Shown here: piece by piece, positions 876-63,931 of the stretch
How the letters are laid out: each line of letters starts with the position of its first letter
How positions within the stretch are numbered: the first letter of the stretch is position 1
Source of the DNA: Bacteroidota bacterium
GTDB lineage: Bacteria; Bacteroidota; Bacteroidia; Bacteroidales; FEN-979
Direction: 5' to 3'
NCBI GenBank assembly: GCA_026391795.1
Contig: JAPLDI010000033.1
Location: forward strand, 1,598 to 65,597
DNA length: 64,000 bases
Program-made: the position numbers and the translations under genes
The notes under the pieces: generated by a model
The model's database searches: none
What the model was told of the DNA's origin: nothing
The model's input: only the letters and a program-made list of their open reading frames with translations

Positions 876-937
876 TGGGTGATGTGAGATGGGTGATGCG
901 TGATGCGAACAGCGAAATTCCGCGTCACGCGTCACGA
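864..937. repeat. 7-nt periodic tract (nGTGATG)x6, then (CGCGTCA)x2
   Basis: CACGATG CGTGATG GGTGATG TGAGATG GGTGATG CGTGATG (864-905), overlapping the stop codon at 873-875. CGCGTCA CGCGTCA at 921-934. Confidence 0.8.
893..935. terminator. 15-bp hairpin between convergent genes, built from inverted heptamer tracts
   Basis: 893-907 GTGATGCGTGATGCG pairs with 921-935 CGCGTCACGCGTCAC (13-nt loop). The plus-strand RNA has two G-U pairs; the minus-strand RNA has two A-C mismatches. Confidence 0.5.
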
Positions 938-939
938 TT

Positions 940-3900
940 TTACTCCGTCTTCACCAGTTTGATCATCCTGAATTCATTCCCGATCGTCACCCTGATCATG
1001 TAGACGGCTGCCGGAAGGGCTGAGATATCAACCACTGTTTTCCGCTCCGTAACCGGAACCTTTTTTACTACCTCTCCCTGAACGTCAAATATATCCAGTG
1101 AACTCTTCATCCCGAAGGAATAATCAGGAAATTCAACGGTAAAATTATTGGTAGCCGGGTTCGGGTAGATGATGACGGACAACCCTGAAATGTTCTTTGG
1201 AACTCCCGTTACCGTATTGATGGTAACAGTCAGTTTTTCACCCGACCAGAGGGAGATCCCGCAGGTATTCGAGGATTTGACTTTAATATGCGCACTCCCG
1301 AGGTAAGAGGGGGTCCATGTCACGGTCCCGGTAAGCCCGGATCCGCTGATGCTACCGGCACCTGCAGGGGTAATATCCCAGGTATAGGAATCGGCATTAG
1401 CTGCAGGGGTTGTCAAATAATCCGAATGAGATACATAGTAAAGGTCAACTGTATCCGGTCCCGACGGGGTGGCCGGGATGGCCGGCATCTGGATGACTGT
1501 CACCACGGTTGGAAAGGAGGTTGCAAAACATCCGAACCCGTCTGTTACGGTGACCGTGTAGCTTCCTGAAACTGATACCGTGATGCTTTGGGTGGTCTCG
1601 CTGTTGCTCCATAGATAGGAGGCTCCGGGGCTGGATGTAAGGGTAACCGAATTACCGGTGCAGAAGGTGGTGGGTCCGCCTGGCGTAATCGTTGCAGCGG
1701 GCAGCGAATGGATCGTCACTGCGTGGATGATGGTATCCGAACATCCGGAACTGCTTGCCACGATCAGCTGTACATTGAATATTCCGGAAGCGCTGAAGGT
1801 ATGAGACGGGTTCTCCAGGATTGACGTGTTGTTTGTACCGCTTGCGGGATCCCCGAAATTCCAGTTCCAGCCATTGAGTGAGCCTCCTCCGTTCGTTTGG
1901 GAGTTGTCCATGAACTGAACATTCTGCCCGTCACAGTTATTGGCGGGGAATGAGAAATCGGCAATGGGCTGCGGTGAAACAGTCACATTATAGACTGTGG
2001 GAGTGGGGGCTGAACATCCCCCCGAATTGGTGTAGTTGACACTCACCGTCTGTGCCCCTGCAAGGGTCCAGGTAACGGTGATCTGGGAAGTTCCGGATCC
2101 GGCCGTGATTGTTCCCCCTGAGGATACCGACCAGGTATAGCCTGTCATGCCTGTCTCGGTAGTATAAGTGATGCCTGTTGTTCCCGCACAGACCGAAGAA
2201 GCACCTGTAATAGTCGGAACCGGTGCAGTGCAGTTGATGAAGACGGGGGTCTGCCAGAGTCCCCTGCCGAAAGTGGCAGCCCTTAAGATACTGTTCTGCG
2301 GATTGGCGGCATAATAAATTTCGAGTTCCCCGATCTTCACATTAGGTAACCCGGTGTTGTAAGGGATCCAGTTGTCGGTACCCTTTTTGAAATAAACGCC
2401 CAGTTCGGTTCCCACATAAAGCTGGACTTCGGAGGCGGATTGTTTGTTCTGAACCACTGCATAGGCCGGGAGCTGGGGAAGTCCGGTCGAGATGTTGGTC
2501 CAGTTACTCCCCCCGTCAATGGACTGGTAACAGGTAGTGGTATTGTACCCGCCAAGGGTGACCCAGAGCGTGAGCGGGTCGTCGTTCTTTACAGCTATGT
2601 AGGTAATGCTGCCGGATCCAACTGGCAATGTTCCGGTGATGACTGACCAGGAGGTTCCCCCGTTTGTGGTTTTCCAGATGACGGAGGGATCCGCTACATA
2701 GATATACTGGTTGTTCGACGGGGCAATGGCCATGGAGCGGATCTTGTTCGAGGTGTTCATCGTCGATATTTTCGTCCATCCGTTACCCCTGTTGGTTGTT
2801 TTCCAGACATCGGAGTAGCCGGCATACAATACCTGGGCATTGGTCGGGTCGATGATGTAAGGCGTAACCCAGGCACCGCTTCCGGCACCGCTGGGCTCAA
2901 TGGCTGTGGCACTGGTCCAGTGATTCATGGTCCTGTCTATCTGCCCGTTCACATACGTCCCGTATTGAATATTAACATCTGTAAAATCGATCAGGCATTC
3001 CATGCCGTCACCTCCTTTGACATCCTCCCATACTCCTCCTGATAATAATTTTGTCCCGTTGTCCTGCAGTCCGGTTATCGTTTCTGTGGAAACGGTTACG
3101 GAAACTCCGAGCTTGTACATCTGGCTTACGACAATGCCGTTGGTTTTGTCCGTCCAGCCTGTTCCGTTATTGGTGGAAATATAGACGCCCCCGTCGTTTG
3201 TTTCGAACAGGTCGCCGTTCGAACGGAAGGAGAGGTCGTGTTTGTCGGCATGAACCGCCGGAACACCGTCGCCCCACCAGTGGTTCACGATCGACCATGA
3301 AGTTCCGCCGGTTGTTGAACGCCAGGTGTTCACACCACCTACGAGCAGCGTGCTGGCATTTGAAGGAGAAACGGCAAGACACAGGTCGTACCAGCCCTGT
3401 CCCCCGGCATCAAGACCGTCGGAGTTCCATCCCAGCAGGTTCAAAGTGGTACCGGCAAATACCTGGGAATAACTGGCGCCGCTGTTTGTCGATTTATAGA
3501 TCCCGTAAAGTCCGCTGGCTGAGTTGGCAGCAATTGCATATACCCACGTAGGCTGATTGGGAGAGACTCCAAGCTCGATCCGGTAGGCGGCAGCATCATA
3601 GAAGGCCTGTGCCCAGGAGGTCCCGCCGTTTGTGGAGATATAGATCCTTCCGGAAGTGGTGGAGGCATAGAGCGTATTGAAATCGCCGGGCTTGGCTTCC
3701 ATGTCAATGAAACTCGTAGATGTCAGCTGGGTGTTCCAGGTGGTACCGCCGTTGGTGGTTTTATAGACTCCGCCGGAAGTGGCGGCAAGGATGACCTGGT
3801 TGTTGTTCGGGTCACCCAGGAGACGGTATACCATGGCCCCGGCCTGGATGGTGTAGCTGAGTCCCGTGCTGCTCCATGTGGATCCGCCGTTTGTCGACTT

Positions 3901-4539
3901 CAGCACACCGATGCTCCGGTTATCCCAGTGATCTTTATCGCCGGTGGCGATGTAAATCGTATTTGAAGAAGCATAATCGGTTGGAATAAAAATATCACTT
4001 ACCGCGAGGACCCCGTTGTTGTCGGTCAGGCAGGTCCAAGTTGTGCCGTTGTTTGTCGTTGTCCACAATCCGCCGGCTGCTGCACCCACCCAATAAGTAT
4101 TGGTGTTTGAAGGATGGAACGCAACGCAATTCAATCGGCCGATGCCGGCATACCCGCCCGCGGAGCTGCTTGTTCCCAGGCTTGTCCAGTTGGCTGAACT
4201 GGCAGGGTTCATGCCGGGATTCAATTTCAGGTATTCCTCGTATATTTCCTGTGCCGTCCTCGTCGGGAATGCGCCGGTGGTGGGGTTTACCCTTCCTTCC
4301 ATATCATACTCCCAGCGCTTGAACTGTTTCCAGCCCACCGCTTTTTTCTTCACCCCGTTCTCCAGATAGGTTCCCGCATCGACGTTGTAGGGAGCCCAGT
4401 AATCATTAAAGGCCTTCTGGTAGTCGAAAAGGGTCAGTTCTGATTTCGTTTTTGACTGAGGAAGATTGTTCATCCAGTTCTGGGAGAACAGCATCGTCGT
4501 AACAAATGCCAATGCAAGAAAGAGAAAGGTTTTTTTCAT
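940..4539 (-). CDS. Large secreted BNR/Asp-box beta-propeller protein with Ig/PKD-like modules and a T9SS C-terminal sorting domain
   Basis: 1199-aa ORF with signal peptide MKKTFLFLALAFVTTMLFSQ. Many Asp-box-like motifs (STNGGSTW, TTNGGTTW, STNGGTSW, SIDGGSNW). CTD: IYPNPATNNFTVEF...AAVYMIRV...KLVKTE. Confidence 0.8.
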   Translation of the reverse strand: MKKTFLFLALAFVTTMLFSQNWMNNLPQSKTKSELTLFDYQKAFNDYWAPYNVDAGTYLENGVKKKAVGWKQFKRWEYDMEGRVNPTTGAFPTRTAQEIYEEYLKLNPGMNPASSANWTSLGTSSSAGGYAGIGRLNCVAFHPSNTNTYWVGAAAGGLWTTTNNGTTWTCLTDNNGVLAVSDIFIPTDYASSNTIYIATGDKDHWDNRSIGVLKSTNGGSTWSSTGLSYTIQAGAMVYRLLGDPNNNQVILAATSGGVYKTTNGGTTWNTQLTSTSFIDMEAKPGDFNTLYASTTSGRIYISTNGGTSWAQAFYDAAAYRIELGVSPNQPTWVYAIAANSASGLYGIYKSTNSGASYSQVFAGTTLNLLGWNSDGLDAGGQGWYDLCLAVSPSNASTLLVGGVNTWRSTTGGTSWSIVNHWWGDGVPAVHADKHDLSFRSNGDLFETNDGGVYISTNNGTGWTDKTNGIVVSQMYKLGVSVTVSTETITGLQDNGTKLLSGGVWEDVKGGDGMECLIDFTDVNIQYGTYVNGQIDRTMNHWTSATAIEPSGAGSGAWVTPYIIDPTNAQVLYAGYSDVWKTTNRGNGWTKISTMNTSNKIRSMAIAPSNNQYIYVADPSVIWKTTNGGTSWSVITGTLPVGSGSITYIAVKNDDPLTLWVTLGGYNTTTCYQSIDGGSNWTNISTGLPQLPAYAVVQNKQSASEVQLYVGTELGVYFKKGTDNWIPYNTGLPNVKIGELEIYYAANPQNSILRAATFGRGLWQTPVFINCTAPVPTITGASSVCAGTTGITYTTETGMTGYTWSVSSGGTITAGSGTSQITVTWTLAGAQTVSVNYTNSGGCSAPTPTVYNVTVSPQPIADFSFPANNCDGQNVQFMDNSQTNGGGSLNGWNWNFGDPASGTNNTSILENPSHTFSASGIFNVQLIVASSSGCSDTIIHAVTIHSLPAATITPGGPTTFCTGNSVTLTSSPGASYLWSNSETTQSITVSVSGSYTVTVTDGFGCFATSFPTVVTVIQMPAIPATPSGPDTVDLYYVSHSDYLTTPAANADSYTWDITPAGAGSISGSGLTGTVTWTPSYLGSAHIKVKSSNTCGISLWSGEKLTVTINTVTGVPKNISGLSVIIYPNPATNNFTVEFPDYSFGMKSSLDIFDVQGEVVKKVPVTERKTVVDISALPAAVYMIRVTIGNEFRMIKLVKTE

Positions 4540-4743: not shown

Positions 4744-5985
4744 CTACTGTTTCACGAATTTTCCGATATCAACAGACAGGTCATCGGTCACTGTGACAAA
4801 ATAAACTCCGGGGGGAAGGGCGGAGATATCCACAAGGGTCCTGCATCCCTGAACCCTGAGGGAAAAAAGCTCCTGTCCGCAGGGGTTCAGAATGGATAAC
4901 CGGCTGTTGTTCCTGCCTGCTGCTGTTTCAATGGTTACCTCATCTTTTGCCGGGTTGGGGCAGATGGACAATGTGTTTGATTTTGAGGAGGGGGAAGGCA
5001 ACCCGACAAAAAAACCTCCGCCATTTGTTGTTTTCAGGATGATCCCGTTATCGCCGGCAATGTAGCCTGTGCTGTCGTTTGTAAAGCGGACCGAATTGAG
5101 TCCCATCGATGTCCCGGAGCTCTGCTTTGCCCAGTAATCACCACCGTTTGTGGTCTTTATCAGGGTTCCGGCGCTGCCTACGGCATACCCGTTATTGGCA
5201 TCTGTAAAATAGACTGAATTTAAAAAATTGGAATCCGGAGATGCCTGGGTCATCCAGCCGGTTCCTCCATTCGTGGTTTTAAGGATGATGGAACCGACAT
5301 CATAATGTCCGGCGCCAAAATAATGGATATAATAACCTACGGCATATCCGGTATCCCTGCTCGTAAAATAGAGGGAGTTGAATCCATCATCGAAATCAGT
5401 ATTTGTCCAGGAATTCGCGTAATTATTGGTTCTCAGGATGGTCCCGTCGGTTGAAGCGTAAGGGTGCACATAGTAATTGCCGGCTGTGTATCCATTGGCT
5501 GCATTGACAAAATAAACCGTATAGAAATTCTTTCCGCTTGCTTCTGTCCAGATTGTCCAGAGAGCCCCCCTGTTTGTTGTTTTTAAAATTGTGCCAAAGT
5601 CCCCGGCGACATAACCCGTGTCGGCATCGATAAAAAAAACGGACCTCAGGGAATTAGCTGTTCCACAGGATAACGAATCCCAGGATGCACCGCCGTCACT
5701 GGTTTTGATGAGGGTCCCGAAATTCCCTGCGGCATAGCCGGTAAGTGAACTGGTGAAGAAAACGGAGTTTAAATCTTCAGTGGTTCCGCTGGATAATGTA
5801 CTCCAGGTCATGCCTTCATCAATTGTTTTTATGATCGTTCCGGAATAGCCCACAGCGTAACCTGTATCGGCACTGGTAAAGAAGACGGACTTCAGGTTGT
5901 TGACTGTCCCGCTTGGTACTATATTCCATTGAGCGAATACCCCAACCTGGAGAAGAGAAAATAACAGGCAGAAAAGATTTTTCAT
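4744..5985 (-). CDS. Ycf48/BNR-repeat beta-propeller protein with T9SS C-terminal sorting domain
   Basis: Repeated KT(T/S)(D/N)GG..W motifs. CTD: CPNPAKDEVTIE...GVYFVTV...KFVKQ. I chose the start at the signal peptide MKNLFCLLFSLLQVGVFAQ. The ORF-track start at 6033 lies inside the heptamer repeat. Confidence 0.75.
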   Translation of the reverse strand: MKNLFCLLFSLLQVGVFAQWNIVPSGTVNNLKSVFFTSADTGYAVGYSGTIIKTIDEGMTWSTLSSGTTEDLNSVFFTSSLTGYAAGNFGTLIKTSDGGASWDSLSCGTANSLRSVFFIDADTGYVAGDFGTILKTTNRGALWTIWTEASGKNFYTVYFVNAANGYTAGNYYVHPYASTDGTILRTNNYANSWTNTDFDDGFNSLYFTSRDTGYAVGYYIHYFGAGHYDVGSIILKTTNGGTGWMTQASPDSNFLNSVYFTDANNGYAVGSAGTLIKTTNGGDYWAKQSSGTSMGLNSVRFTNDSTGYIAGDNGIILKTTNGGGFFVGLPSPSSKSNTLSICPNPAKDEVTIETAAGRNNSRLSILNPCGQELFSLRVQGCRTLVDISALPPGVYFVTVTDDLSVDIGKFVKQ

Positions 5986-6021
5986 AGTTTTTGAATTGTA
6001 AAGTTGATCCACCCCTGACTT

Positions 6022-6077
6022 TTCATTCTTCATTCTTCATTCTTCATTCTTCATTCTTCATTCTTCATTCTTCATTT
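6022..6077. repeat. Perfect microsatellite (TTCATTC)x7 plus one variant
   Basis: 49 nt of perfect heptamer repeat at 6022-6070, then TTCATTT. Lies between the predicted -7 box and the start codon at 5985. Confidence 0.9.
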
Positions 6078-6432: not shown

Positions 6433-6488
6433 CGGCAGTCGGCAGTCGGCAGTCAGCAGTCGGCAGTCGCGTCACGCGTTACGCGTTA
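6433..6488. repeat. 7-nt tract (CGGCAGT)x5 (one variant), then (CGCGTYA)x3
   Basis: In-phase heptamers 6433-6488. The last unit overlaps the aspA stop codon. Confidence 0.85.
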
Positions 6489-7475
6489 CGTTCTCGCCGG
6501 CCCTATCATATTCTCCGGCGCCAGTATGCGGTCAAGTTCTTCCTTTGTCAACAACTTGTGTTTGAGTACAAGGTCATAGACACTCCCATCGGTTTCCTGT
6601 GCTTCCTTTGCGATCATGCTGCTGTTCTCATAACCGATATAGGGATTGAGTGCAGTGACAAGCCCGATGCTGTGTTCCACCATCCTGCGGCAATGCCCGG
6701 CATTGGCTGTGATGCCTTCGATGCAACGCACCCGGAGCGTCTCCATGCCGTTCTTCAGCATCTCGATCGACTCAAACAGGCTCTGCACAATAACAGGTTC
6801 CATCACGTTCAGTTCGAGTTGTCCGGCCTCCGCGGCAAAGCTGATGGTGAGATCGTTCCCGATGACCTTGAAGGCTACCTGGTTCACTACTTCCGGGATC
6901 ACCGGGTTTACCTTGCCCGGCATGATGGTCGATCCGGGCTGCATGGGCGGGAGGTTGATCTCATGCAGTCCGGCACGCGGACCCGAAGAGAGCAGGCGCA
7001 AGTCGTTGCAGATCTTTGACAGTTTGATCGCCAGCCGCTTCACTGCCGATGAATACATGACATAGGCCCCGGCATCCTGGGTGGCTTCAACAAGGTTGGG
7101 GGCAAGTTTGATATCATAGCCTGTCAGTTCGCGCAGGTGAAACACCACCCTGTCGCTGTAGCCCGGTTCGGCATTGAGGCCTGTACCGATGGCCGTTCCG
7201 CCCATGTTCACCTCGAGAAAGAGCGTTACATTCTGGTTCAGCCGCTCCACTTCTTCATCCAGCGTGGTGGCAAAGGCCCCGAAGGTCTGACCCAGGGTCA
7301 TCGGCACTGCATCCTGCAGCTGGGTGCGCCCCATCTTCAGAACCCCCGCAAATTCAGTCTCCTTTTTCCGCATGGCACCCACGAGACCCGAAAGGACCTT
7401 CACCAGCGTCTCATTGCTTTTGATCAGGGCGATCCGGATGGAGGTGGGATAAACGTCGTTGGTCGACTGCGACAT
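6486..7475 (-). CDS. aspA: Aspartate ammonia-lyase, C-terminal two-thirds (downstream segment of an interrupted gene)
   Basis: SQSTNDVYPT, the fumarate-lyase signature GSTIMPGKVNPVIPEVVNQVAFKVIGND, and AAEAGQLELNVMEPVI. Close to my recollection of E. coli AspA. Confidence 0.85.
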   Translation of the reverse strand: MSQSTNDVYPTSIRIALIKSNETLVKVLSGLVGAMRKKETEFAGVLKMGRTQLQDAVPMTLGQTFGAFATTLDEEVERLNQNVTLFLEVNMGGTAIGTGLNAEPGYSDRVVFHLRELTGYDIKLAPNLVEATQDAGAYVMYSSAVKRLAIKLSKICNDLRLLSSGPRAGLHEINLPPMQPGSTIMPGKVNPVIPEVVNQVAFKVIGNDLTISFAAEAGQLELNVMEPVIVQSLFESIEMLKNGMETLRVRCIEGITANAGHCRRMVEHSIGLVTALNPYIGYENSSMIAKEAQETDGSVYDLVLKHKLLTKEELDRILAPENMIGPART

Positions 7476-7477
7476 AT

Positions 7478-8341
7478 TTACATGGTTGTTGGGATGACAG
7501 AACTGGTATTCACCCTTCTGGTGACCCAGGAGATCTCGAGGGCACTGTTGGCGATCACCTCGTTGGCGTTCATATTGGTGGATGTGCCTGCGCCTCCCTG
7601 TATCATGTCAACCACAAAATGGTTGCGGAAGTGATTGTTCAGGATCTCTTCCGAAGCTTTCAGGATGGCGTCGGTCAGGTCGTCGGGGAGCTGGCCGAGG
7701 TCGTGGTTGGCTTTGGCTGCAGCCATCTTCACGAGGGTGATCGCTTCGATGAATACAGGGAATGCGCTGAGCCGGATGCCGCTGATGTTGAAGTTTTCAA
7801 GGGCACGCAGGGTCTGTATTCCGAAATAATGTTCAAAAGGCACCTCCCGGGTACCGAGAAGGTCATGCTCGCTTCGTGTCCGCCCCGATTCGTATTGTGC
7901 CGTTTCAGAAACGTGCTGGTTGTTGGCATACCGGAGCCTGCGGGAGATGATCCTCGAGGTATTCGACATCACCTTGATCCCGATGCCGGCATTTTTAATG
8001 AAAAACCCGGTGCCGGTGCAGAATACCTCCGCAGGAGTCAGTGCCCTCGCCGAGGTTGAATGCGGATAGTCGTCCATCAGGGAGCCTTCACCGAAAAAAT
8101 CCCCTTTTCCGAAGACCGTAAGGAGCGCCTCCCTGCCTTCTGCATCCTTTTTAAAAAGTTCAACCTTCCCGTTCAGAAGGATGAAAATCTCGCGCCGGGG
8201 TTCATTTTCCCTGAATAGCTCGCCCCCGGCAGGGTAGACCTTCGTACTCGACTGGCTGATCACAGTGGCGGTCTCATCCGGTGTGAGTCCTTTGAAAAGG
8301 TCCACCTGTGAAAGAAAACTGATGGTTTCTGTCTGGTTCAT
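7478..8341 (-). CDS. aspA: Cyclic-nucleotide-binding domain fused to the N-terminal part of aspartate ammonia-lyase (upstream segment of an interrupted gene)
   Basis: The N-terminal ~140 aa are cNMP-binding-like (FLSQVDLFKGL...GELFRENEP...FFGEGSL). They are followed by the AspA N-terminus DLLGTREVP...GGAGTSTNMNANEVIAN. The frame breaks at ALEI. Confidence 0.75.
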   Translation of the reverse strand: MNQTETISFLSQVDLFKGLTPDETATVISQSSTKVYPAGGELFRENEPRREIFILLNGKVELFKKDAEGREALLTVFGKGDFFGEGSLMDDYPHSTSARALTPAEVFCTGTGFFIKNAGIGIKVMSNTSRIISRRLRYANNQHVSETAQYESGRTRSEHDLLGTREVPFEHYFGIQTLRALENFNISGIRLSAFPVFIEAITLVKMAAAKANHDLGQLPDDLTDAILKASEEILNNHFRNHFVVDMIQGGAGTSTNMNANEVIANSALEISWVTRRVNTSSVIPTTM

Positions 8342-9396: not shown

Positions 9397-10443
9397 TTAT
9401 TGTCTTTTTGGTAACCTGTCTGCTATGGGTTCCAGCAGGTCAAAGATATGGGGAATGGCAGAAAGAAATCCCAGATCAGAGGTCTTTTTCGGAAAATCAG
9501 GGGTCCATGAGTGGGAGAGAGGCTTTGATAAGTTTTTGAGTTTTATTGAACAAATAAACTTCTCTCCGTCCATGGTTCCCGTTGTGTAGGATGCATTAAA
9601 GGAGGTCCATTCTGTTTTTATTGAGGTGATCTCCCCGAATTCTTTGACAACAGGAGGATCATTCAAAATTGGCAGAACCGGTGCAATTGCATCCATGAGC
9701 CTTTCCCGGTGAGCAGCAGGTACGTCATCAAACGCATGGATAAACATGCAAACCAGCTGAACTCTTTTATCTTTCTTTTCATCTTCAATTTTCTTACGCA
9801 AAGAGGGCCTGGCCAGCTTATCAACAGCGTATCGGATCAATCCATGCTGGTTATTCTCAAAAACAAAGTCAGTCAGCATTTCAATGTCGTTTAGCCGCGA
9901 GATAGCGTTTCCACGAATTAACGTTTTATCATCCTCATTCCAGACAACTTCCCGGCAGGAATCGATGTGATCCATACATTCTTTTTTCCTGTTGAAGGCA
10001 ACGTTGGCGCCCCTGGCTATTTTCAGAAGCAGGTCGTCATTACTCATATGATAAATAGCCTGCAACCGGTAATTAATATCCTTAATGGTATCGTTCATGG
10101 CAATATTAAAAAGTACATCCTGGTCAGTTATTTTGTTAAATGCCTCTTTGCCCTCCTCGTCATAATCATGTGCTTCCAACGCTACTTTTCCAAGCAATTT
10201 TTGATCTGTCAGCTTTTTTAAAGCTGCTTTCCGGATAGCAAACTCTTTTGCTTCAAGTACAATATTTGCAAGTAAGTCCTGATCATTCACCTGAGAAACT
10301 GCTGCTATGCCTTTTTCAATATCAGCAGTTGTCAGGGCAATCTTATAGGGGTCAGTTGTACATCTAACCATAAAAATAAGAGAAATAAATACCAAGGGAA
10401 GGAAAGCATATTTTCTGCCGTAGCAAAATGAAAAGTTTTTCAT
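9397..10443 (-). CDS. Hypothetical lipoprotein with HEAT-like D(Q/D)xLLxxIA repeats
   Basis: Signal/lipobox-like N-terminus ending in VRC. Reiterated motifs: DQDLLANIVLEA, DQKLLGKVALEA, DQDVLFNIAMND, NDDLLLKIARGA. Confidence 0.5.
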   Translation of the reverse strand: MKNFSFCYGRKYAFLPLVFISLIFMVRCTTDPYKIALTTADIEKGIAAVSQVNDQDLLANIVLEAKEFAIRKAALKKLTDQKLLGKVALEAHDYDEEGKEAFNKITDQDVLFNIAMNDTIKDINYRLQAIYHMSNDDLLLKIARGANVAFNRKKECMDHIDSCREVVWNEDDKTLIRGNAISRLNDIEMLTDFVFENNQHGLIRYAVDKLARPSLRKKIEDEKKDKRVQLVCMFIHAFDDVPAAHRERLMDAIAPVLPILNDPPVVKEFGEITSIKTEWTSFNASYTTGTMDGEKFICSIKLKNLSKPLSHSWTPDFPKKTSDLGFLSAIPHIFDLLEPIADRLPKRQ

Positions 10444-10556: not shown

Positions 10557-11978
10557 TCACTTCGGAAAATAGTAAGTATACCCGATAATCAGGGCAATGG
10601 TCTGGGCAAATACCTTTGGGGTTGTATTTTCGACCAGATCTGGGCTGATATGATCCAGGTTCTCGATGTTTTTTGACGGACTCACCGTATAGGTGATGCC
10701 GGCTGTGATCGAGTTCCTTATCTTGTGGTAGGAAAGTCCGAGTGATACGTGGTACAGGTCCCACTGCCCTCCGGTATGAAGATAGGAGTCGGTCTCATCC
10801 GATTTCCGGAAAGAGGAGAAGTCGGTTCTGAACCCGGCCATCAGGCTGAACTGTTTGCCCAGTCTCTGGTTGAACCCCACTGCGAAATTAAGCACCGGTT
10901 TCGATGAATTTATTACATGCAGGAAACTGTTCAGGTAGGGTTTACTGTCTGCGGAATCTTTATAGGCTGGGGGATAAACGAACGGGTCTTCGTTGGGTTC
11001 GAACAGGTGGTACGGCTTGATCCCGAAGAAATATTCGGCACTCAAAGCGATCTGTGTTTTCTCGGTCTTGTACTCTGCGCCTGCTCCGATGGATAAGGGG
11101 TAGCGAAATTTGACCTTCGCCTTGTCTGTCCGGTCAATGATGGCGAATCCCCCCGAACCGGTGAGCGTATCGTCAGTTACGAGTACCATGGATACTTCCC
11201 GCTGGATCTCCCCGCTGCTGTATAGTTTTATAGCAGGCGTCGTGACTGTGAGTCCCAGTCTCCAGCATCCCTTCTCGTAATTGATCCCGAACTTCCCAAG
11301 CATTGAAAAAACTTTGTATTTCAGGTTCTTGTCATTGTTGATACTTCCGAAATCCAGGGTGTTGTTTACCGTGTCGATGATCCGCAGAAAATTCGTCAGC
11401 TGGTAGCTCTGGGCCCGGTAGGTAATAAATCCGGAAACACCGACGCTGAGATTATCGTTGATCTTGTAGCCTAAACCCAGTCCGCCCCATTGTTCGTTCA
11501 GCTGGTTGGTATAATCAAACGCCCCTGTATAAATGTACGAATCGGGATCTTCCGGAGTACTGTTCTTTTCACCATTATACCTCAGGTTCATCAGGACATT
11601 GCTGTATTGCCGGGTAAGAAGAGCATATGAGAGCCTGAGCCTTTCATTCCTGAAAATACTTACGAGTCCTGAGATGATCTGCGGATAGATGCTCAGCTGG
11701 GCGGAATTCAGGTTAAGCCCTGTACCAGCACCGTCCTCAATAAAGATCTTGTCGACCTTGTATACGTTGGCGTCCACCGACAGGGAGGGGATGGTTATAA
11801 AGCCGAGCGCCCCCGGGTTATAAAAGATCGCTGTATTGTCGCGAACACCCCCGATCATAGCGCCGCCCATCAGGGTGCTGATCGCCCCGAACTGCTGAGC
11901 CCAGTAATGGTCATCCTGGGAATACGTATGGAAGGAAATGGAAATGAAGAGAATGAACAGAAATGGCTTGCGTTCCAT
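10557..11978 (-). CDS. FadL/TodX-like outer-membrane beta-barrel protein
   Basis: Signal peptide, then GAISTLMGGAMIGGVRDNTAIFYNPGALGF (FadL-like MGGA...NPA.L pattern). Beta-strand periodicity throughout. Confidence 0.55.
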   Translation of the reverse strand: MERKPFLFILFISISFHTYSQDDHYWAQQFGAISTLMGGAMIGGVRDNTAIFYNPGALGFITIPSLSVDANVYKVDKIFIEDGAGTGLNLNSAQLSIYPQIISGLVSIFRNERLRLSYALLTRQYSNVLMNLRYNGEKNSTPEDPDSYIYTGAFDYTNQLNEQWGGLGLGYKINDNLSVGVSGFITYRAQSYQLTNFLRIIDTVNNTLDFGSINNDKNLKYKVFSMLGKFGINYEKGCWRLGLTVTTPAIKLYSSGEIQREVSMVLVTDDTLTGSGGFAIIDRTDKAKVKFRYPLSIGAGAEYKTEKTQIALSAEYFFGIKPYHLFEPNEDPFVYPPAYKDSADSKPYLNSFLHVINSSKPVLNFAVGFNQRLGKQFSLMAGFRTDFSSFRKSDETDSYLHTGGQWDLYHVSLGLSYHKIRNSITAGITYTVSPSKNIENLDHISPDLVENTTPKVFAQTIALIIGYTYYFPK

Positions 11979-18728: not shown

Positions 18729-19925
18729 TTACCTTCTCCGCCACCTGCTGGTTTTTGCCTTGACAACCGGTTCGGGTGCAGCTCCGTGCTTCATCGGGAA
18801 AGGATGATCCTCCACTACCGGGATTTGCCCGGAAATGAGCTTATGGATATCCTTGAGGTATTCACGTTCTTCCGTATCGCAGAATGAGAGTGCAATACCG
18901 TTAATCCCTGCGCGGCCAGTTCTACCGATACGGTGAACGTACGTTTCGGGGATGTTGGGTATCTCGTAATTGATAACATGCGACAGCTGTTCCACGTCGA
19001 TCCCCCTGGAGGCAATGTCGGTGGCAACCAGCACCCGTGTCTTTTTATTCTTGAAATTGTTCAGTGCATCCTGACGGGCGCCCTGCGATTTGTTGCCATG
19101 GATGGCGGAAGCTTTTATCCCTGCTTTCACCAGATCCCGGCTCACTTTGTCGGCTCCATGTTTAGTACGGGTGAAGATCAGCGCCGAATCAATGGATTTA
19201 TCCTGCAACAGATGGATCAGAAGATGCCTCTTGTCGGGTTTGTCTACGAAATAGAGGGATTGTTTGATCAGGTTCGTGGTAGCCACAACCGGAACGATCT
19301 CAACTTTCACAGGTTTTACAAGGATTGTTGCTGCCAGTTTCTGGATCTCCGGCGGCATGGTGGCGGAAAAGAACAGCGACTGCCGTTTTGCAGGCAGCTT
19401 TGCGATGATCTTTTTCACATCATGGATAAAGCCCATATCGAGCATCCGGTCGGCTTCATCAAGCACAAAGAACTGGATGTTCTGTAGCGTCATCAAATGC
19501 TGGTCGATAAGGTCCAGGAGCCTCCCGGGGGTGGCAACCAGGATGTCGATCCCGTTTTTAAGTGCATTGACCTGACCATGTTGCGACACCCCGCCGAAAA
19601 TGACGGTATGCCTGAGGCCTGTGTGTTTTCCATAGGCGGAAAAACTTTCACCGATCTGGATTGCCAGTTCCCGTGTCGGTGTTACGATGAGCGCCTTGAT
19701 TTGCCTTTTGCCATTGCCATTCGAAAGATTTCCAGACAAAAGCTGCAGGATCGGAATCGCAAAAGCGGCCGTTTTTCCTGTGCCTGTCTGGGCACAGCCC
19801 ATAAGGTCATGCCCTTTGAGCAGGACGGGAATGGCCTGTTCCTGGATCGGAGTAGGCTCTGTGTATCCTTCGGCTTTTACGGCACGGAGGATGGGTTCAA
19901 TAAGATTTAAATTTTCAAAAGTCAT
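18729..19925 (-). CDS. rhlE: DEAD-box ATP-dependent RNA helicase
   Basis: Motifs [18 protein letters not shown] ([13 protein letters not shown]), [13 protein letters not shown]. Basic C-terminal tail. Confidence 0.9.
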
Positions 19926-20209: not shown

Positions 20210-20280
20210 CTTTGGATATGTAACAAGCAGGGGAAATGTCGGAAAACAGAAAATTTTCCTTAAATCAAAAGATCAATCCG

Positions 20281-22897: not shown

Positions 22898-22966
22898 CTT
22901 CCAAATCTTTCCATTGCATTCAGCTTTCCGCTACCTTTGCTCCGCCATTATTTAAACCAATCTCAG

Positions 22967-53682: not shown

Positions 53683-55254
53683 ATGAAAACAACCTTCATT
53701 ATACTTCTTTCGCTCTTCGTGTCATTGCTACTGAATGGGCAGGATGTGCCCCGACAGGATTCAACGAAGGTGGCACCCAATGACACGCTGACTCCCGGCA
53801 TCGACAGCCCGAAAAAGCAACTTGACAAAATCAAGGAAGTAAAGGTGGAGAAGCTCTCCGATTCAACCGGTAACGAGCCGGTAAAAAGCCCCCTTGTGGA
53901 TACCACGAAACAGAACAAATACGGGGACCTGCTTGAGGATGACACAGCCTACAACAAGAGATATCCATTCTGGATCCCTGCGCTTGAGGTGGTCGGTACT
54001 CTCACGCTTACGGTAGCGCTCGACAGGTATCTTTTGAATGCGGATTATGCGCGTATAGGGCCTGCCACATGGAAATATAATATAGATAAGGGATGGGAAT
54101 GGGATGCTGACCGCTTCGGTGTTAATTTTATCGGTCACCCTTACTCCGGAACACTCTCCTTCAATGCCGGGCGTTCGAACGGGTATAATTTTTACCAGTC
54201 GTTTGGCATGGCATTCGGGGGAAGCCTTCTGTGGGAATATTTCGGCGAAAACACGCGTCCGTCTTACAACGATATTATCTACACACCCATCAACGGTGCC
54301 TTTTTCGGGGAGATCCTCTACCGCTTGAGTTCGAACATTCTCGACGACCGCACAAGGGGTGCCGACCGGGTTTTCCGTGAAATAGCTGCGGGGCTGGTTG
54401 ATCCCATGCGCGGCTTTAACAGGCTGATCCAGGGGAAATCGTTCCGGCATACCAACAAAGAGGTTTATGAGAAGGAGCCGCTTAATATCTCCTTGTATGG
54501 AGGCGTACGCCGGGTCAATGAAATTTCGAACGATATCTTTGGTAGTGGTACCTACAGCGCAATATTCAATGCGCAGTTTGATTATGGAAATCCTTTTGAG
54601 GTACGCAAACGGAAGCCTTATGATTTTTTCAAACTCCGTGTGGATTTAAACTTCGGGGTTGGACGGAAATATCTTGATAACATTCTCGGCTATGGGATTT
54701 TATTCGGGAAGAATTACCAGGTGGGAAAAATGGCACTCCTCCTGGGCGGTTATCAGTATTTTGATTACTGGGACAATAAAAAGTTTGAGCTGGGAACCAT
54801 CGGTTTCGGCGGGGGATTGATTTCAAAATTACCCCTGAGCAAGACAAGTAATATTTATACACGGCTCCACGTTGCTCTCGTACCTTTGGGGGGAAACAGC
54901 ATCAAGGTCCGGTCAGATACATCGCAATTCAGGGATTACAATTTTATCGGGGGACTGGAGACAAAGTTTGAAACGACGATCAACCTTGGTAAATACCTGA
55001 CGGCTACACTCTACTACTATTTTTATGTATTGCGGACTTACATCGGCACAAGCGGCACTAACAATGTCCACATTCTGAAACCCAGAATTACAGTACGGCT
55101 ATACAAACAACTGAGCATAGGATGTGAATATCAGCTATACTACGATAACCTCTACCAGCGAAACCTTCCTGCCTTGCATTCAGTGCAGTCAGAACAGAAA
55201 GTCTTCCTGCTCTTCTTCCTGGAAGATCGTCAGCGGAGAGGATATTACAATTAA
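53683..55254 (+). CDS. DUF3943-like envelope protein
   Basis: Signal peptide. FGVNFIGHPYSGTLSFNAGRSNGYNFYQSF...LWEYFGE resembles my recollection of DUF3943. Beta-rich C-terminal half. Confidence 0.5.
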   Translation: MKTTFIILLSLFVSLLLNGQDVPRQDSTKVAPNDTLTPGIDSPKKQLDKIKEVKVEKLSDSTGNEPVKSPLVDTTKQNKYGDLLEDDTAYNKRYPFWIPALEVVGTLTLTVALDRYLLNADYARIGPATWKYNIDKGWEWDADRFGVNFIGHPYSGTLSFNAGRSNGYNFYQSFGMAFGGSLLWEYFGENTRPSYNDIIYTPINGAFFGEILYRLSSNILDDRTRGADRVFREIAAGLVDPMRGFNRLIQGKSFRHTNKEVYEKEPLNISLYGGVRRVNEISNDIFGSGTYSAIFNAQFDYGNPFEVRKRKPYDFFKLRVDLNFGVGRKYLDNILGYGILFGKNYQVGKMALLLGGYQYFDYWDNKKFELGTIGFGGGLISKLPLSKTSNIYTRLHVALVPLGGNSIKVRSDTSQFRDYNFIGGLETKFETTINLGKYLTATLYYYFYVLRTYIGTSGTNNVHILKPRITVRLYKQLSIGCEYQLYYDNLYQRNLPALHSVQSEQKVFLLFFLEDRQRRGYYN

Positions 55255-55256
55255 TC

Positions 55257-55839: not shown

Positions 55840-55849
55840 TAACAGCCTC

Positions 55850-56779
55850 TCAATCCAGCTGGTAAACCAGCATGACGCCTGTTCCGACATGGCTGATGGG
55901 AAGGACCTTTAACTTTTTAATGTGGTTGTTCATGATGGTCCTCCCGATGGCAAAACCAATTGCCGACCCGATAAAAACATCCGAAAACCAGTGGTCATTC
56001 TGATAGACCCGTGAAGCAGCAACGAGCCCGGCGAAGGTATAACAGAGAACCGGCACCCAGACAGTCTTGCTATAGGCAGTGGCAATGACCGTTGCCACTG
56101 CGAATGCATTTGCGGCATGTCCCGATGCAAATGAGCTGTTGCTTGGCATGTTGAACGGGCCTTCCCAGATGTAAGGATTGGGAGGATCATCCTGGTAGGG
56201 GCGGTGACGGTGGGTAAGCTGTTTCAGAACCTGGTCAAAAACGAAAGCCAGGGCGAAGGCTTCAACCCCCTTCAGGGCGGTATACCGTGCTTTATCATTT
56301 TTTACAATTGCCCCGATGCCGTACATGATTCCCAGTGCAGGAATCGTGTAGAGACCGCTGCCCAGTCGCTCCAGCCCGTATTTCGCAATGCTGTTCATGT
56401 ATGGAGTCTGGTTGAGTTGGACTACTTTCTGGATGGTTTTATCCTGGGTATAGAACACAACTCCCAAAGCGATTACTCCTGAAACTGCGATCCACTGGTA
56501 TTTGTTCCAGCGGGCTGGTGAAATGATGATATCCCTCGAATCCGTAAGATAGGATTTGAAATAACCTTTATCGGGAACAATGGACGGGGTTCGCTCATCA
56601 TGGGGAATGCTGCTCAGCGGCTTGGCCGGGATTGAGTCATCCGTGGCTATCGCCTTCAGCTTACTCGCTGGGATTGTATCGACCTGGGCCAGCGCGCTGA
56701 ATTGAGCGATCATCAACATGCAGGCAAGAAACAACGTCCGATTTTTCAGTAAAATCCTCATGAATGCTCCTTCAGTCAA
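55850..56779 (-). CDS. PAP2-family phosphatase
   Basis: KQLTHRHRP (KxxxxxxRP), SFASGHAANAF (PSGH-like), SRVYQNDHWFSDV (SRxxxxxHxxxD). An alternative ATG lies at 56761. Confidence 0.85.
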   Translation of the reverse strand: MTEGAFMRILLKNRTLFLACMLMIAQFSALAQVDTIPASKLKAIATDDSIPAKPLSSIPHDERTPSIVPDKGYFKSYLTDSRDIIISPARWNKYQWIAVSGVIALGVVFYTQDKTIQKVVQLNQTPYMNSIAKYGLERLGSGLYTIPALGIMYGIGAIVKNDKARYTALKGVEAFALAFVFDQVLKQLTHRHRPYQDDPPNPYIWEGPFNMPSNSSFASGHAANAFAVATVIATAYSKTVWVPVLCYTFAGLVAASRVYQNDHWFSDVFIGSAIGFAIGRTIMNNHIKKLKVLPISHVGTGVMLVYQLD

Positions 56780-57291: not shown

Positions 57292-58758
57292 TTAAAGTGG
57301 TTTTTCTTGTTTTGTTTGATTTTCCTTATCTGCTTTAGGGGCTGGAGTGGATTGTTTTATTGGTTCCCCCGGATGCTGTGGCTGAGCCTTCTGCTGGTCA
57401 GGCTTCTGGGCCTGCTGTTGCTTGGGCGGTTGAGCATGCTGGGGTTCTTGAGGTTGTTTCTGTTGCTGCTGCTGAGGTTGCTGCTTGGGCGGTTGCTGTT
57501 GTTTCTGTTGCTGCTGTTGTGGTTGCTGCTTTGGCGGCTGTGGTTGCTGTTGTTTCTGTTGCTGCTGTTGAGGTTGCTGCTTTGGCGGCTGCTGTTGCTG
57601 TTGTTTCTGTTGCTGCTGCTGAGGTTGCTGCTTTGGCGGCTGCTGTTGCTGTGGCTTCTGTTGCTGTTGTTGAGGTTGCTGCTTTGGCGGCTGCTGTTGC
57701 TGTGGCTTCTGTTGCTGTTGTTGAGGTTGCTGCTTTGGCGGCTGCTGTTTTGCCGGAGGAGCCTGCTGCTGTTTTGCCGGAGGAGCCTGCTGTTGTTTTG
57801 CAGGAGGCATTGTTTTTTGCTGCTGAGGGGGTTGCTGTTTATTGGCTGGCTGCACCTGCTTTTCGTTTGGAGGTTGCTGCTTGGCTGGTGGTTTCTGATC
57901 AGGTTTACCCTGCTGGATATTTTTTTGTGCGGGTGCCGGCGATCGCTGTGCCGGTGGTTTAACGTCTTTCATGTCAGCCACTTTTACCGGAGCAGGTTTT
58001 TGTCCGCTGGAAACATTTTTTACTACGCTGGGTTTGTATATCTGCAGTTGGTTATTATTCAGTTTCTCACCTGGCTTGCTGGTCGCCTGAATCGGAATGG
58101 CTGTTACCTGCCTGCCACTTACTTTGACAACTTCTGCCCTGTCGGGGCCGGCATTGTAGGTAACGTTATGGGACCTGTCAACCCGGGTATTATTTATTAC
58201 CGTTGAATTGTTAATGATCGTAACGTTGGTTGAGTGATCTACATAGTAGTTATTGATGTCCCGTCGTCCGAAGTCCCTGTTCCTGACAAACGTCCAGCGA
58301 TCAAAAGGAACATCGTATCCGTTGCTGTATGCCATGCTTATGCTGACGCCCGGTCCGATGGGTGCCCATCCGTAATAATCACCGGATCTTCTCCAGGTAA
58401 CCCATCCCGGTCCCCATTCATTGTCGGGCACCCAGATAGGGCCATAGTATGGGTCGGTGTACCATCGTCCATAATGAAAAGGAGCCCATCCCCATGAATA
58501 ATTTGATACCCAGGTCCAACCCTGATCGGTGAATACCCAGTATCCGTTCGTTGAGTAAGGCGTAAATCCGGGAGCCACGTCAGGCACCCACACATACCCG
58601 TATTGCGGGTTATCCACCCAGGTTCCATAGGGGCTCAACTGATCATAAAACACCTGGAAATTTACAGATCCGCCCTGTGCGGAAGCTTTTTGCGGGGTCA
58701 TCCCTGCGCCTATACAAAAAATGAGAGCAAGGGTAATAATTTTCATTCGGGTCTTCAT
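57292..58758 (-). CDS. Secreted W/Y/G-rich (YxWGW-type) domain protein with a long Q/P/K low-complexity tandem-repeat tail
   Basis: Signal peptide. N-terminal YGYVWVPDV...SWGWAPFHYGRWY...YYGWAPIGPG. C-terminal about 6 x 17-aa PPKQQPQQQQQK(P/Q)QQQQ repeats. Confidence 0.7.
   Translation of the reverse strand: MKTRMKIITLALIFCIGAGMTPQKASAQGGSVNFQVFYDQLSPYGTWVDNPQYGYVWVPDVAPGFTPYSTNGYWVFTDQGWTWVSNYSWGWAPFHYGRWYTDPYYGPIWVPDNEWGPGWVTWRRSGDYYGWAPIGPGVSISMAYSNGYDVPFDRWTFVRNRDFGRRDINNYYVDHSTNVTIINNSTVINNTRVDRSHNVTYNAGPDRAEVVKVSGRQVTAIPIQATSKPGEKLNNNQLQIYKPSVVKNVSSGQKPAPVKVADMKDVKPPAQRSPAPAQKNIQQGKPDQKPPAKQQPPNEKQVQPANKQQPPQQQKTMPPAKQQQAPPAKQQQAPPAKQQPPKQQPQQQQQKPQQQQPPKQQPQQQQQKPQQQQPPKQQPQQQQQKQQQQQPPKQQPQQQQQKQQQPQPPKQQPQQQQQKQQQPPKQQPQQQQQKQPQEPQHAQPPKQQQAQKPDQQKAQPQHPGEPIKQSTPAPKADKENQTKQEKPL
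57448..57812 (-). repeat. Coding tandem repeats (about 6 x 51 nt, then about 3 x 24 nt) in the Q/P-rich tail
   Basis: Plus-strand unit TTGAGGTTGCTGCTTTGGCGGCTGCTGTTGCTGTGGCTTCTGTTGCTGTTG is duplicated exactly (about 57670-57771). The GCTGTTTTGCCGGAGGAGCCTGCT unit follows. Confidence 0.8.
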
Positions 58759-63088: not shown

Positions 63089-63886
63089 ATGAAAAAAACA
63101 CTCTCCTTGCTTGCATCCTCAACACTGATCACTGGCCTGCTGTTGTCTTCATGTGTGTCAAGTAAGAAATTTCAGGCGTCTGAAGCCAATGTCGACAGGC
63201 TGCAAAAGGAAAATACCAGCGCTCTCGGCCGTTTGAACGATTGCAATACGCAGGTTAAAAAGCTGAATGATGAAAAATCAGCCCTTCAGAATGAAAATGC
63301 CGCGGTTCAAAGCGACCTGAATGTCCTGAGCGCAGAAACAAAGATGACCATTGCCGACCAGGCCAAACGGTTAAAGAGTTTACAGGGGATGATCCAGGCA
63401 CAGAAGGACGTGATGAACAAACTTAAAAATTCAATCGCCGATGCGCTGATGAATTATAAAACAGATGAGTTGTCGGTTTACATTAAGGATGGAAACGTTT
63501 ATGTTTCACTTGAGGAAAAACTGCTGTTCAAATCGGGCAGCGATGTTGTTGATCCCAAAGGAAAAGAAGCACTGAAAACGCTTGCAGGAGTGCTTAACAG
63601 CACAAGGGACGTAACCGTGATGATTGAAGGTCATACCGATAATGTTCCCATCAAGACAAAACAATTCAAGGATAACTGGGATCTCAGTACGGCAAGGGCA
63701 ACCTCCATTCTGCGTATCCTGACAACGGACTATGGGTTTGCCCCGAACCGGATAACAGCTTCAGGGAGAGGCGAATTTCATCCCGTGAAATCAAATGACA
63801 CCGCTGAAGGTCGTGCTGCCAACCGCAGAACAGAGATCATCTTGTCACCGGATCTCAGCGAGCTTTATAAGCTTTTAAACCAATAA
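63089..63886 (+). CDS. OmpA/MotB-family lipoprotein with a coiled-coil N-terminal region
   Basis: LLSSC lipobox, coiled coil, then IEGHTDNVP...NWDLSTARATSI...AANRRTEI. Confidence 0.85.
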   Translation: MKKTLSLLASSTLITGLLLSSCVSSKKFQASEANVDRLQKENTSALGRLNDCNTQVKKLNDEKSALQNENAAVQSDLNVLSAETKMTIADQAKRLKSLQGMIQAQKDVMNKLKNSIADALMNYKTDELSVYIKDGNVYVSLEEKLLFKSGSDVVDPKGKEALKTLAGVLNSTRDVTVMIEGHTDNVPIKTKQFKDNWDLSTARATSILRILTTDYGFAPNRITASGRGEFHPVKSNDTAEGRAANRRTEIILSPDLSELYKLLNQ

Positions 63887-63903
63887 GGAAGAAAAAGAAG
63901 TCG

Positions 63904-63931
63904 TGACGCGTAACGCGTAACGCGTGACGCG
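63904..63931. repeat. (ACGCGTN)-family heptamer tract
   Basis: TGACGCG TAACGCG TAACGCG TGACGCG, 18 nt after the OmpA-like stop. Confidence 0.85.

Follow-up and report, generated by a model that had tools for sequence, protein, structure and literature searches.

Why does a bacterial chromosome segment carry the same short tandem repeat, in the same orientation, behind the stop codons of unrelated genes? In the window analyzed here, i.e., the whole stretch of 64,000 nucleotides from a Bacteroidota chromosome (47% G+C; 88.5% coding and 11.5% non-coding), short arrays of a heptanucleotide unit are found at gene 3' ends. The unit can be read as an interrupted palindrome, CGT-R-ACG, or in another phase as ACGCGT followed by one base (ACGCGTN arrays). 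A preliminary description of this DNA had listed nine such arrays and interpreted them as a lineage-specific family of 3'-end elements; the observation was confirmed and its interpretation is partly supported. In our reading, to which we assign a probability of about 50%, the arrays are slippage-driven heptanucleotide microsatellites that are tolerated past stop codons, resemble repetitive extragenic palindromic (REP) elements in their distribution and are occasionally used as terminator hairpins.

This reading starts from the position of the arrays relative to genes, for which stop codon distances were taken from a gene map assembled from long open reading frames (ORFs). All nine arrays listed before are real, and a tenth, decayed array of the same family at positions 853–907 had been missed. 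As described, the arrays lie downstream of stop codons: their distance from the closest stop on the upstream side is −3 to 87 nt, and the bodies of the coding sequences (CDS) are free of them. Moreover, 17 of the 20 ACGCGT hexamers of the window are located in arrays. With up to 3 mismatches allowed, ACGCGTNACGCGTNACGCGT gave 18 overlapping matches in eight of the nine previously listed arrays (none in 10527–10547), compared to 0 matches in 100 dinucleotide-preserving shuffles. In a permutation test, in which arrays were placed at random in the window's intergenic DNA, 1.3 ACGCGTN arrays were expected at most 20 nt past a stop codon and 7/10 were observed there (p ≤ 2e-4), which supports the claimed link to gene 3' ends. 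For heptamer arrays of any unit the observed number was 12 of 18 vs 2.4 expected (p ≤ 2e-4). Such arrays are present in 3/3 convergent, 9/22 co-directional (at least 100 nt) and 0/3 divergent intergenic regions.

Next to the position, the arrays follow a strand rule. In the sense direction of the gene upstream of it, each ACGCGTN array has the form (T[A/G]ACGCG)n, the variable base being a purine in 36 and a pyrimidine in 1 of the 37 units. A purine at this position creates a TGA or TAA triplet in each unit, so that three units contain stops in all three frames; in two genes, 6486..7475 and 12..875, the array itself supplies the stop codon. At ~20 kb the array orientation switches together with the gene orientation. 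The GC skew is mostly positive, marginally negative in three 4-kb intervals, and shows no strand switch across the window. A replication-linked array orientation was rejected on these grounds, as the arrays flip with the genes without a switch in skew and their orientation hence follows the gene and not replication. Hairpin stability was rejected as the origin of the bias, since sense and antisense folds are equal in energy. An array-specific stop context, 'TAAATC', was rejected as well, since it also occurs after genes without arrays. Units deviating from the consensus are mainly products of CpG transitions (CpG to TpG or CpA), such as TGACACG, TAACGTG and TGATGCG.

The individual arrays differ in length and state of preservation. 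The minus-strand array at 921–937, (TGACGCG)x2.4, starts 2 nt past the TAA stop of gene 940..4539, whose product carries a type IX secretion system (T9SS) tail, and with ~2.4 units it is shorter than the three to six units given before for all arrays. It forms the right arm of an inverted pair within a 64-nt convergent intergenic region. The left arm is the decayed plus-strand array at 853–907, composed of TGATGCG and TGATGGG units (GATGCGT type), i.e., CpG-to-TpG variants of the ACGCGTN family, for which Tandem Repeats Finder (TRF) reports period 7; it overlaps the TGA stop (873–875) of ORF 12..875 and parses into units with a purine at the variable base in 7/7. The lyase gene 6486..7475 ends on the first TAA of the minus-strand array at 6468–6488 (TAACGCG, TAACGCG, TGACGCG). 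In this gene the Pfam domain FumaraseC_C reaches the end of the protein, showing that its C-terminus is native. A truncation of genes by the arrays was rejected, as C-terminal Pfam domains are complete and reach the protein ends. The minus-strand array at 9291–9321 is a decayed array of four units (TAACACG, TGAAGCG, TAACGCG, GGACACG), is bordered by an inverted repeat CAAAATC...GATTTTG, and lies 75 nt past the stop of 9397..10443. This distance is due to a duplicated 3'-end module: positions 9322–9396 match the last ~60–75 coding nucleotides of 10557..11978 (78% identity, 59-nt BLAST match), so that a module of ~60–95 nt including the array was copied from the 3' end of that gene together with its array (source region 10550–10640), and the copied segment is non-coding and situated downstream of the unrelated gene 9397..10443. 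The array at the source, 10527–10547 (minus strand; TGACACG, TGACGCG, TG), is short and starts 9 nt past the TGA stop of 10557..11978. This is the only pair with common flanks, and an interpretation of the window's arrays as parts of larger dispersed repeats or miniature inverted-repeat transposable elements was rejected for this reason.

Two further arrays on the minus strand, 16191–16221 (TGACACG, GAACGCG, TGACGCG, TGACGCG) and 18694–18721 (two TAACGCG and two TGACGCG units), lie 2 nt past the TAA of the T9SS-tailed gene 16224..18011 and 7 nt past the TAA of the DEAD-box helicase gene 18729..19925, respectively. On the plus strand, the array at 22852–22897 consists of six units, whose decay lessens distally, and is located 87 nt past the stop of 20236..22764. 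The OmpA-family gene 63089..63886 ends on a TAA, and 17 nt further on lies the array at 63904–63931 (plus strand; TGACGCG, TAACGCG, TAACGCG, TGACGCG). Finally, the array at 25925–25957 is of mixed orientation and fills the 58-nt convergent region between 22937..25921 and 25980..27308, being 3 nt away from one stop and 22 nt from the convergent gene. It contains one unit of 6 nt (TRF 8% indels) and is the exception to the strict 7-nt phase reported earlier.

A mechanism by slippage is suggested by the comparison of related genomes. In the Vulcanimicrobiota genomes ER1 and ER2 orthologous arrays are kept in place, and one of them differs by exactly 7 nt, i.e., one unit, with flanks that are 95% identical. 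This supports the heptamer slippage proposed in the preliminary description. In the comparison with a third species, certain heptamer arrays were found in only one of the two genomes. For the window itself, the closest relative recovered shows partial synteny and a helicase with 82% identity, and its orthologous stop is not followed by an array; in a more distantly related Bacteroidota ortholog of the helicase, a different heptamer array (GTTGCAG) lies ~35 nt past the gene. Judged by these comparisons, the dynamics of the arrays across relatives is that of microsatellites with some persistence.

Tandem repeats of this kind might also be produced by assembly or polishing. In favor of such an origin, short-read contigs break inside the 63904 array, and the window shows at least one apparent frameshift relative to an Illumina-based contig, splitting a cNMP-lyase gene. 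However, in Logan short-read assemblies of four other runs the 63904 array is identical in sequence, and two further Logan contigs span the arrays 9291 and 10527, again without a difference. All four contigs with the 63904 array end inside it, as expected for a sequence that is repeated elsewhere in the genome. Moreover, the same arrays occur at hundreds of places in unrelated public genomes, and the artefact reading is effectively refuted. Regarding the split gene, ORFs 7478..8341 and 6486..7475 (minus strand, 6486–8341) are two halves of one gene, the former coding for a cNMP-binding domain and the N-terminal part of Lyase_1, the latter for the remaining Lyase_1 and FumaraseC_C. The independent short-read contig encodes the cNMP-lyase as a single product of 617 amino acids, which means that the version in the window is a frameshift pseudogene or else contains an indel error at ~7475–7480.

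From these observations we infer a mechanism in which slipped-strand mispairing would create the arrays and alter their length. Two units that have slipped out could fold into a 5-bp GC hairpin, which would stabilize the intermediates and favor the CGT-R-ACG unit; this could explain its recurrence in many phyla. Arrays would persist only where the gain or loss of 7 nt does no harm, which in this genome is mainly the non-coding DNA that is still transcribed after a stop codon, up to the end of the transcription unit. The surviving orientation, (T[A/G]ACGCG)n, would be the one that provides TGA or TAA in all three frames, so that a long C-terminal extension is prevented when slippage occurs beside a stop codon; this is the reason we propose for the strand rule. 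Arrays of at least four intact units and inverted pairs may in addition form hairpins, which are the sole candidate terminators in the tight regions 853–937, 14558–14599, 22877–22897 and 25925–25957, and in these few tight intergenic regions the array hairpins probably act as terminator. The arrays would thus be akin to REP elements in their distribution and likely consequence, yet built by slippage and not by transposition.

A generic process is also indicated by the period and by the diversity of units. When all periods were scanned by one criterion, 9 arrays of period 7, 2 of period 8 and 0 of periods 4–6 and 9–12 were found, all of them within the non-coding part of the window. At least ten distinct heptamer units are present in the window. 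By TRF and our own period scan the arrays comprise 2.4 to 7 units. The repeats thus show head-to-tail 7-nt copies, an excess of period 7, several unrelated units and a restriction to non-coding DNA, as known for heptanucleotide simple repeats. Post-stop placement is not a feature specific to ACGCGT, as had been assumed, since unrelated units hold the same position. On the minus strand, sense TGGAGGA x12 (4659–4741) begins 2 nt past the TAG stop of 4744..6033 and sense AGATCAG x3.4 (55815–55838) 11 nt past the TGA stop of 55850..56779; on the plus strand, AGGTATT x7 (55257–55305) begins 2 nt past the TAA stop of 53683..55254. A minus-strand array of sense ACTGCCG x5 at 6433–6467 (TRF 93% matches) abuts the 6468 ACGCGTN array, giving rise to a compound array. 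Larger distances are found for TCGGACC x4.3 (46037–46066, plus strand), 59 nt past the stop of the P-type ATPase gene 43455..45977, and for the inverted heptamer pair at 14537–14599 (minus strand; sense GAAAATG x2 and CATTTTC/ATTTTTC x5), ~50 nt past the stop of 14650..15933. A perfect (AATTACG)x5.7 array at 49887–49926 (plus strand) starts 3 nt past the mlaE stop and occupies the entire mlaE-mlaF intergenic region, its last unit, AATTATG, providing the ATG of the ATPase gene (mlaF); a slip by one unit would alter the mlaE-mlaF spacing in the operon.

Only one heptamer array of the window is located beside a start codon, namely the perfect sense (GAATGAA)x7.9 at 6022–6076 (minus strand), where the T9SS gene 4744..6033 has its 5' end. 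It overlaps the annotated start and contains an ATG and a TGA in each unit. The real start of this gene is probably the downstream signal peptide beginning with MKNLF, and the array may constitute a phase-variable 5' leader. Phase-variation repeats lie inside an ORF or in the promoter or 5' region; all ACGCGTN arrays are situated 3' of stops.

Heptamer repeats as such have been described before. In a survey of 7,006 genomes with SPADE, tandem heptamers were the top repeat in the intergenic regions of many prokaryotes, making them the commonest prokaryotic intergenic simple repeat, and the reason for the period of seven and their role were left unexplained, with 'no clear clue' for a function (10.1101/309039). 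Heptanucleotides were reported as the most abundant long simple sequence repeats (LSSRs) in most LSSR-rich genomes, with slippage being proposed as mechanism (Mrázek, 2007, as relayed by PMC4679880). The window's arrays share with LSSRs the head-to-tail intergenic 7-nt units, the dominance of period 7, the many units per genome and the proposed slippage (Mrázek, Guo and Shah, 2007). They differ in being dominated by one unit with a 6-bp palindrome, which is held in one orientation past stops and occurs in many phyla; none of this was found described for LSSRs in the account relayed there. TAACTGA repeats in Beggiatoaceae, Cyanobacteria and some Bacteroidetes are located mostly just upstream of starts and show 7-nt differences between strains (MacGregor, 2015, PMC4679880). 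They are alike in having 2–6 or more copies, in their occurrence in distant phyla a few nucleotides away from gene boundaries, and in their stop triplets and 7-nt indels; they differ in their location upstream of starts in forward orientation, their proposed role as translational-regulator sites and their non-palindromic, unrelated unit. In Geobacter metallireducens heptamer elements such as GGACCGG x4 (49 copies) and MTYCTGA x5 were reported (PMC2700814). These are dispersed families of 4–5 copies as well, and the TCGGACC and CTGATCT arrays of the window resemble their units; they differ in being annotated as putative regulatory RNA or global-regulator sites, in occurring also inside genes and in having no reported link to stop codons. 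The heptanucleotide repeat class is thus known, whereas the preliminary description had not recognized the arrays as a described repeat family. Only this particular unit family appears to be new, as we found no description of an ACGCGTN or CGTNACG heptamer family in the literature.

A further group are the short tandemly repeated repetitive sequences (STRRs) of cyanobacteria, with the heptamers CCCCAGT, TTGGTCA and CAACAGT, which were reportedly described by Mazel and coworkers in 1990. To our knowledge, no stop-codon rule has been established for them. STRRs resemble the window's arrays as dispersed non-coding tandem heptamers that form abutting compound arrays, and a CGGCAGT array of the window shares the form NNNCAGT. 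They differ in their units, which are non-palindromic, and in their hosts, heterocyst-forming cyanobacteria instead of T9SS-bearing Bacteroidota.

A parallel in distribution is given by REP elements. These are located in convergent and unidirectional regions, at most 20 bp away from the ORF upstream of them (measured from its 3' end), and in some cases contribute the ORF's stop codon (PMC3733652). The GTAG- and CGTC-tagged REPs and the bacterial interspersed mosaic elements formed by them (Di Nocera et al., 2013, PMC3733652) are high-copy extragenic palindromes near ORF 3' ends, are rarely found in divergent regions, have a polar end, form inverted pairs that fold into larger hairpins and sometimes supply the stop codon. 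The window's arrays share this location near ORF 3' ends in convergent and co-directional regions. The differences concern structure and origin: REPs are single hairpins of 20–40 bp that carry a tag (GTAG or CGTC), those of the GTAG type being presumably mobilized by REP-associated tyrosine transposases (RAYTs), whereas the arrays are tandem 7-nt repeats that change by unit slippage, no RAYT was found among the window proteins or beside arrays in the matches listed, and instead of a GTAG/CGTC tag they show the boundary consensus (A/T)(A/T)T^CGTR (^ marking the boundary). A stable hairpin of the REP type is predicted for 18694, 63904, 25925 and the inverted pair 853–937, and not for 921, 9291, 10527 and 16191.

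This similarity leads to the main rival explanation, according to which the arrays are dedicated 3'-end RNA elements: a selected hairpin would end transcription or block 3'-to-5' exonucleases, and slippage would merely tune its length. Next to the REP-like distribution (location within 20 bp of the 3' end, the same types of regions, supply of the stop codon; PMC3733652), the predicted folds support this in part. The self-complementarity noted earlier is borne out for arrays with at least four intact units: for those of four intact units the predicted folding energy is −12 to −14 kcal/mol (z-scores −2.4 to −3), a range that includes 18694 (−14 kcal/mol, z −3.0), 63904 (−14 kcal/mol) and 25925. 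The 15-bp hairpin noted at 893–935 was found, 893–907 pairing with 921–935, and the whole inverted pair 853–907/921–937 has a 15-bp stem that fills its 64-nt convergent region (−38 kcal/mol, z −4.5); in this and in the 58-nt convergent region the array hairpin is the only structure. The 16-nt palindrome GCGTGACGCGTCACGC at 22877–22892 followed by T5 (22877–22897) was found as well; it has the form of a textbook terminator, and 22852–22897 looks like the one array with a canonical intrinsic-terminator appearance. Non-palindromic heptamers can form hairpins as inverted pairs, as is the case for GAAAATG/CATTTTC at 14558–14599 with an 18-bp stem and a U tract. The strong orientation bias of 36:1 and the maintenance of orthologous arrays between species would also agree with selected elements.

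However, the predicted folds of four arrays are like those of shuffles, with −3 to −6 kcal/mol for 921, 9291 and 10527 and −9.4 kcal/mol for 16191. When hairpins followed by a T tract were scanned on the correct strand, only 22877–22897 and 25925–25957 (the latter on both strands) were recovered among the ACGCGTN arrays, although the genome uses canonical terminators, e.g., at 48577–48600. An intrinsic-terminator stem with a T/U tract is also present at 14558–14599 and absent from the other seven ACGCGTN arrays. Compared to intrinsic terminators, the likeness lies in a GC-rich hairpin past the stop and, at the three sites named, a stem with a T-rich tail; the difference is that most arrays have neither a T tract nor a stable stem. 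The terminator role suggested before thus may hold for individual sites and is not supported in general, half of the arrays folding like shuffles: array-built terminator-like hairpins are predicted in about four intergenic regions only, and most of the arrays do not look like terminators. Furthermore, equal fold energies in both orientations leave the strand bias unexplained by a hairpin function. The units AATTACG, AGGTATT and AGATCAG are unstructured and occupy the same niche, no array follows the orthologous helicase gene in the closest relative, and many arrays in other phyla lie just upstream of start codons instead. Taken together, we regard dedicated 3'-end elements as a possible but doubtful explanation. 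No match to Rfam was obtained in the window or in 18 array-rich loci. At 18694 the array is placed between the stop codon and a separate 13-bp hairpin (GCAGGAATTTTCG...GAAAATTCCTGC, 18664–18693, minus strand) that lies directly distal to it, and array and hairpin together fold at −31.8 kcal/mol (z −6.1).

Alternatively, the arrays might act at the level of DNA, presenting clusters of ACGCGT or CGTNACG sites at 7-bp spacing to a nucleoid protein, a regulator or an ACGCGT-specific methyltransferase or restriction system. The concentration of 17 of the 20 ACGCGT sites of the window in arrays would fit, as would the length of three units of 21 bp, which corresponds to two helical turns, and the CpG transition variants, which are expected for methylated cytosines. 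Moreover, the heptamer arrays of G. metallireducens were annotated as putative global-regulator sites (PMC2700814). However, ACGCGT occurs at 3 sites outside of arrays vs 1.7 expected from a 4th-order Markov model, which gives no sign of a site-specific avoidance; restriction avoidance of ACGCGT was examined as a candidate and is unsupported, since a general depletion of CGCG accounts for the scarcity outside arrays. A palindromic site gives no reason for a strand bias of 36:1, and unrelated heptamer units behave alike. The ACGCGT-specific methyltransferase or restriction gene that had been suggested as a check is not found among the window proteins, and no methyltransferase, restriction enzyme or candidate binder is present in the window or recurs near arrays among the matches listed. 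A role as DNA-level sites is therefore improbable.

The arrays are not restricted to the lineage of the window. An exact-pattern scan with one genome per species gave at least 119 stretches, and the matches listed include the same array in Vulcanimicrobiota, Synergistia, Aminicenantes/Acidobacteriota, Acetothermia, Planctomycetota, Chloroflexota, Nitrospirota, other Bacteroidota and more, i.e., in more than ten phyla, so that the claim of a lineage-specific family had to be abandoned. Among these matches, several genomes have many each, TRF identifies 391 period-7 arrays compared to at most 111 for any other period, and many other units are of the form NNN+GTGA. Based on crude ORF calls on the matches listed, arrays near stops in other phyla are purine-sense at a ratio of 33:15 and arrays near starts pyrimidine-sense at 30:14. 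The purine-up arrays of Bacteroidota, Vulcanimicrobiota and Synergistia consist of a whole number of CGT-R-ACG units. In the Vulcanimicrobiota loci (L006, L039, L076, L027, L065 and others) ACGCGTN arrays lie inside dispersed repeat families of 100–140 nt with flanking inverted repeats (GAGAAT...ATTCTC), often followed by TCAC+NNN heptamer arrays. Many Vulcanimicrobiota arrays read in pyrimidine sense and precede a Shine-Dalgarno sequence with its start codon by 20–40 nt.

Several of these results count against undirected slippage in a permissive zone. The purine-up arrays of the three phyla share the sharp 5' boundary introduced above, (A/T)(A/T)T^CGTR, and the boundary end faces the nearer gene at a ratio of 45:16 in Vulcanimicrobiota and of 79:42 overall among the matches listed. 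Boundary and polarity are unfavorable since undirected slippage from random seeds predicts neither. The stop preference is weak outside of the window's genome, with 37 arrays vs 28.5 expected (crude ORF calls, matches listed), and the permissive zone does not obviously explain array starts 0–9 nt past the stop within regions of 100–450 nt. Furthermore, one array of four units is perfectly conserved between two species with a diverged distal flank, which hints at constraint, and no length polymorphism was seen for the window's own species, the assemblies compared being all of the same strain.

The boundary in particular raises the possibility of an active sequence-specific process, in which a mobile element, an HUH/RAYT-like nuclease, a recombinase or a templated polymerase deposits or extends CGTRACG units at gene boundaries in fixed orientation. 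The sharp boundary with whole units in three phyla, its orientation towards the nearer gene at the ratios given, the recurrence of the same unit in more than ten phyla, the 100–140-nt dispersed repeats of Vulcanimicrobiota and the duplicated flank-plus-array module of the window would be in line with it. However, apart from 9291/10527 the window's arrays have no common flanks, and the species differences are simple indels of one unit at fixed positions. Associated machinery is absent from the sequence at hand: the 50 window proteins include neither a transposase or RAYT nor a methyltransferase or restriction enzyme, no RAYT (Y1/HUH) gene is found in array-flanking ORFs among the matches listed, and no transposase-like gene or other enzyme family recurs beside the arrays of these 119 loci, where the only recurring neighbors are TPR/HEAT/ankyrin proteins, ABC ATPases and histidine kinases. 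The pattern is also nearly absent from viral contigs (8 stretches in 2.9 million), and the many other heptamer units of the same genomes argue for a generic process. An active process of this kind is thus unlikely. A broader version, which we consider rather unlikely as well though worth stating, is that (T^CGT-R-ACG)n represents a cross-phylum polar element at gene boundaries that is made or maintained by a dedicated sequence-specific activity. Candidates for it would be a templated polymerase, a so far unrecognized nuclease or recombinase, or a protein that binds RNA or DNA in a 7-nt register. If so, the boundary, the 36:1 strand rule, the position 0–9 nt past stops and the occurrence in more than ten phyla would all go back to one mechanism, and the dedicated activity could explain the long-noted dominance of 7-nt repeats in prokaryotic intergenic DNA.

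Slippage-driven microsatellites tolerated past stops remain our preferred reading, and also as such the family is a useful handle on heptamer repeats: its unit is self-complementary, its boundary is the same in distant phyla, its position and strand are regular, and it shades into terminator hairpins in several intergenic regions. If functional, the arrays would constitute a slippage-built analogue of REP elements and might show how terminators originate de novo. If neutral, they would be markers of transcribed non-coding DNA that break short-read assemblies, which makes them useful for annotation and strain typing.

Several other features of the window were recorded. At least seven of its genes code for T9SS C-terminal domains, and the window also encodes a two-component system, an Mla transporter and proteins of the OmpA family. 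Look-ups by exact protein sequence gave no record for two of the window's proteins. In intergenic DNA a second motif, GAATGATGTAACT, is dispersed, often with TGTG before it; it gave 11 matches with up to 2 mismatches vs 1.7 expected. It is found at 29443, 29987, 35566, 39729, 46082, 46828, 48639 and 53507 on the plus strand and at 58843 and 62926 on the minus strand; these 10 of the 11 matches are upstream of the start of a co-oriented ORF, nine at ~10–130 nt and 48639 at ~360 nt, and the eleventh, at 20793, lies within gene 20236..22764. The motif resembles a regulon's promoter or operator element.

Finally, tandem repeats of other periods are present as well. The 595-nt convergent intergenic region 55255–55849 contains no ORF and is densely filled with repeats of several periods, comprising AGGTATT x7, TCTCTGCG x3, 11-nt and 22-nt repeats (55488–55609), AGCTGATG x7.8 and CTGATCT x3.4. 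Within coding DNA, a 51-nt tandem repeat at 57453–57749 (gene 57292..58758, minus strand; 5.9 copies, 93% matches) is rich in GCTGCTGTT and codes for a low-complexity tract of a DUF6600 protein, and a 63-nt tandem repeat at 36397–36644 (3.9 copies) is located at the N-terminus of the hybrid histidine kinase 36289..38616.

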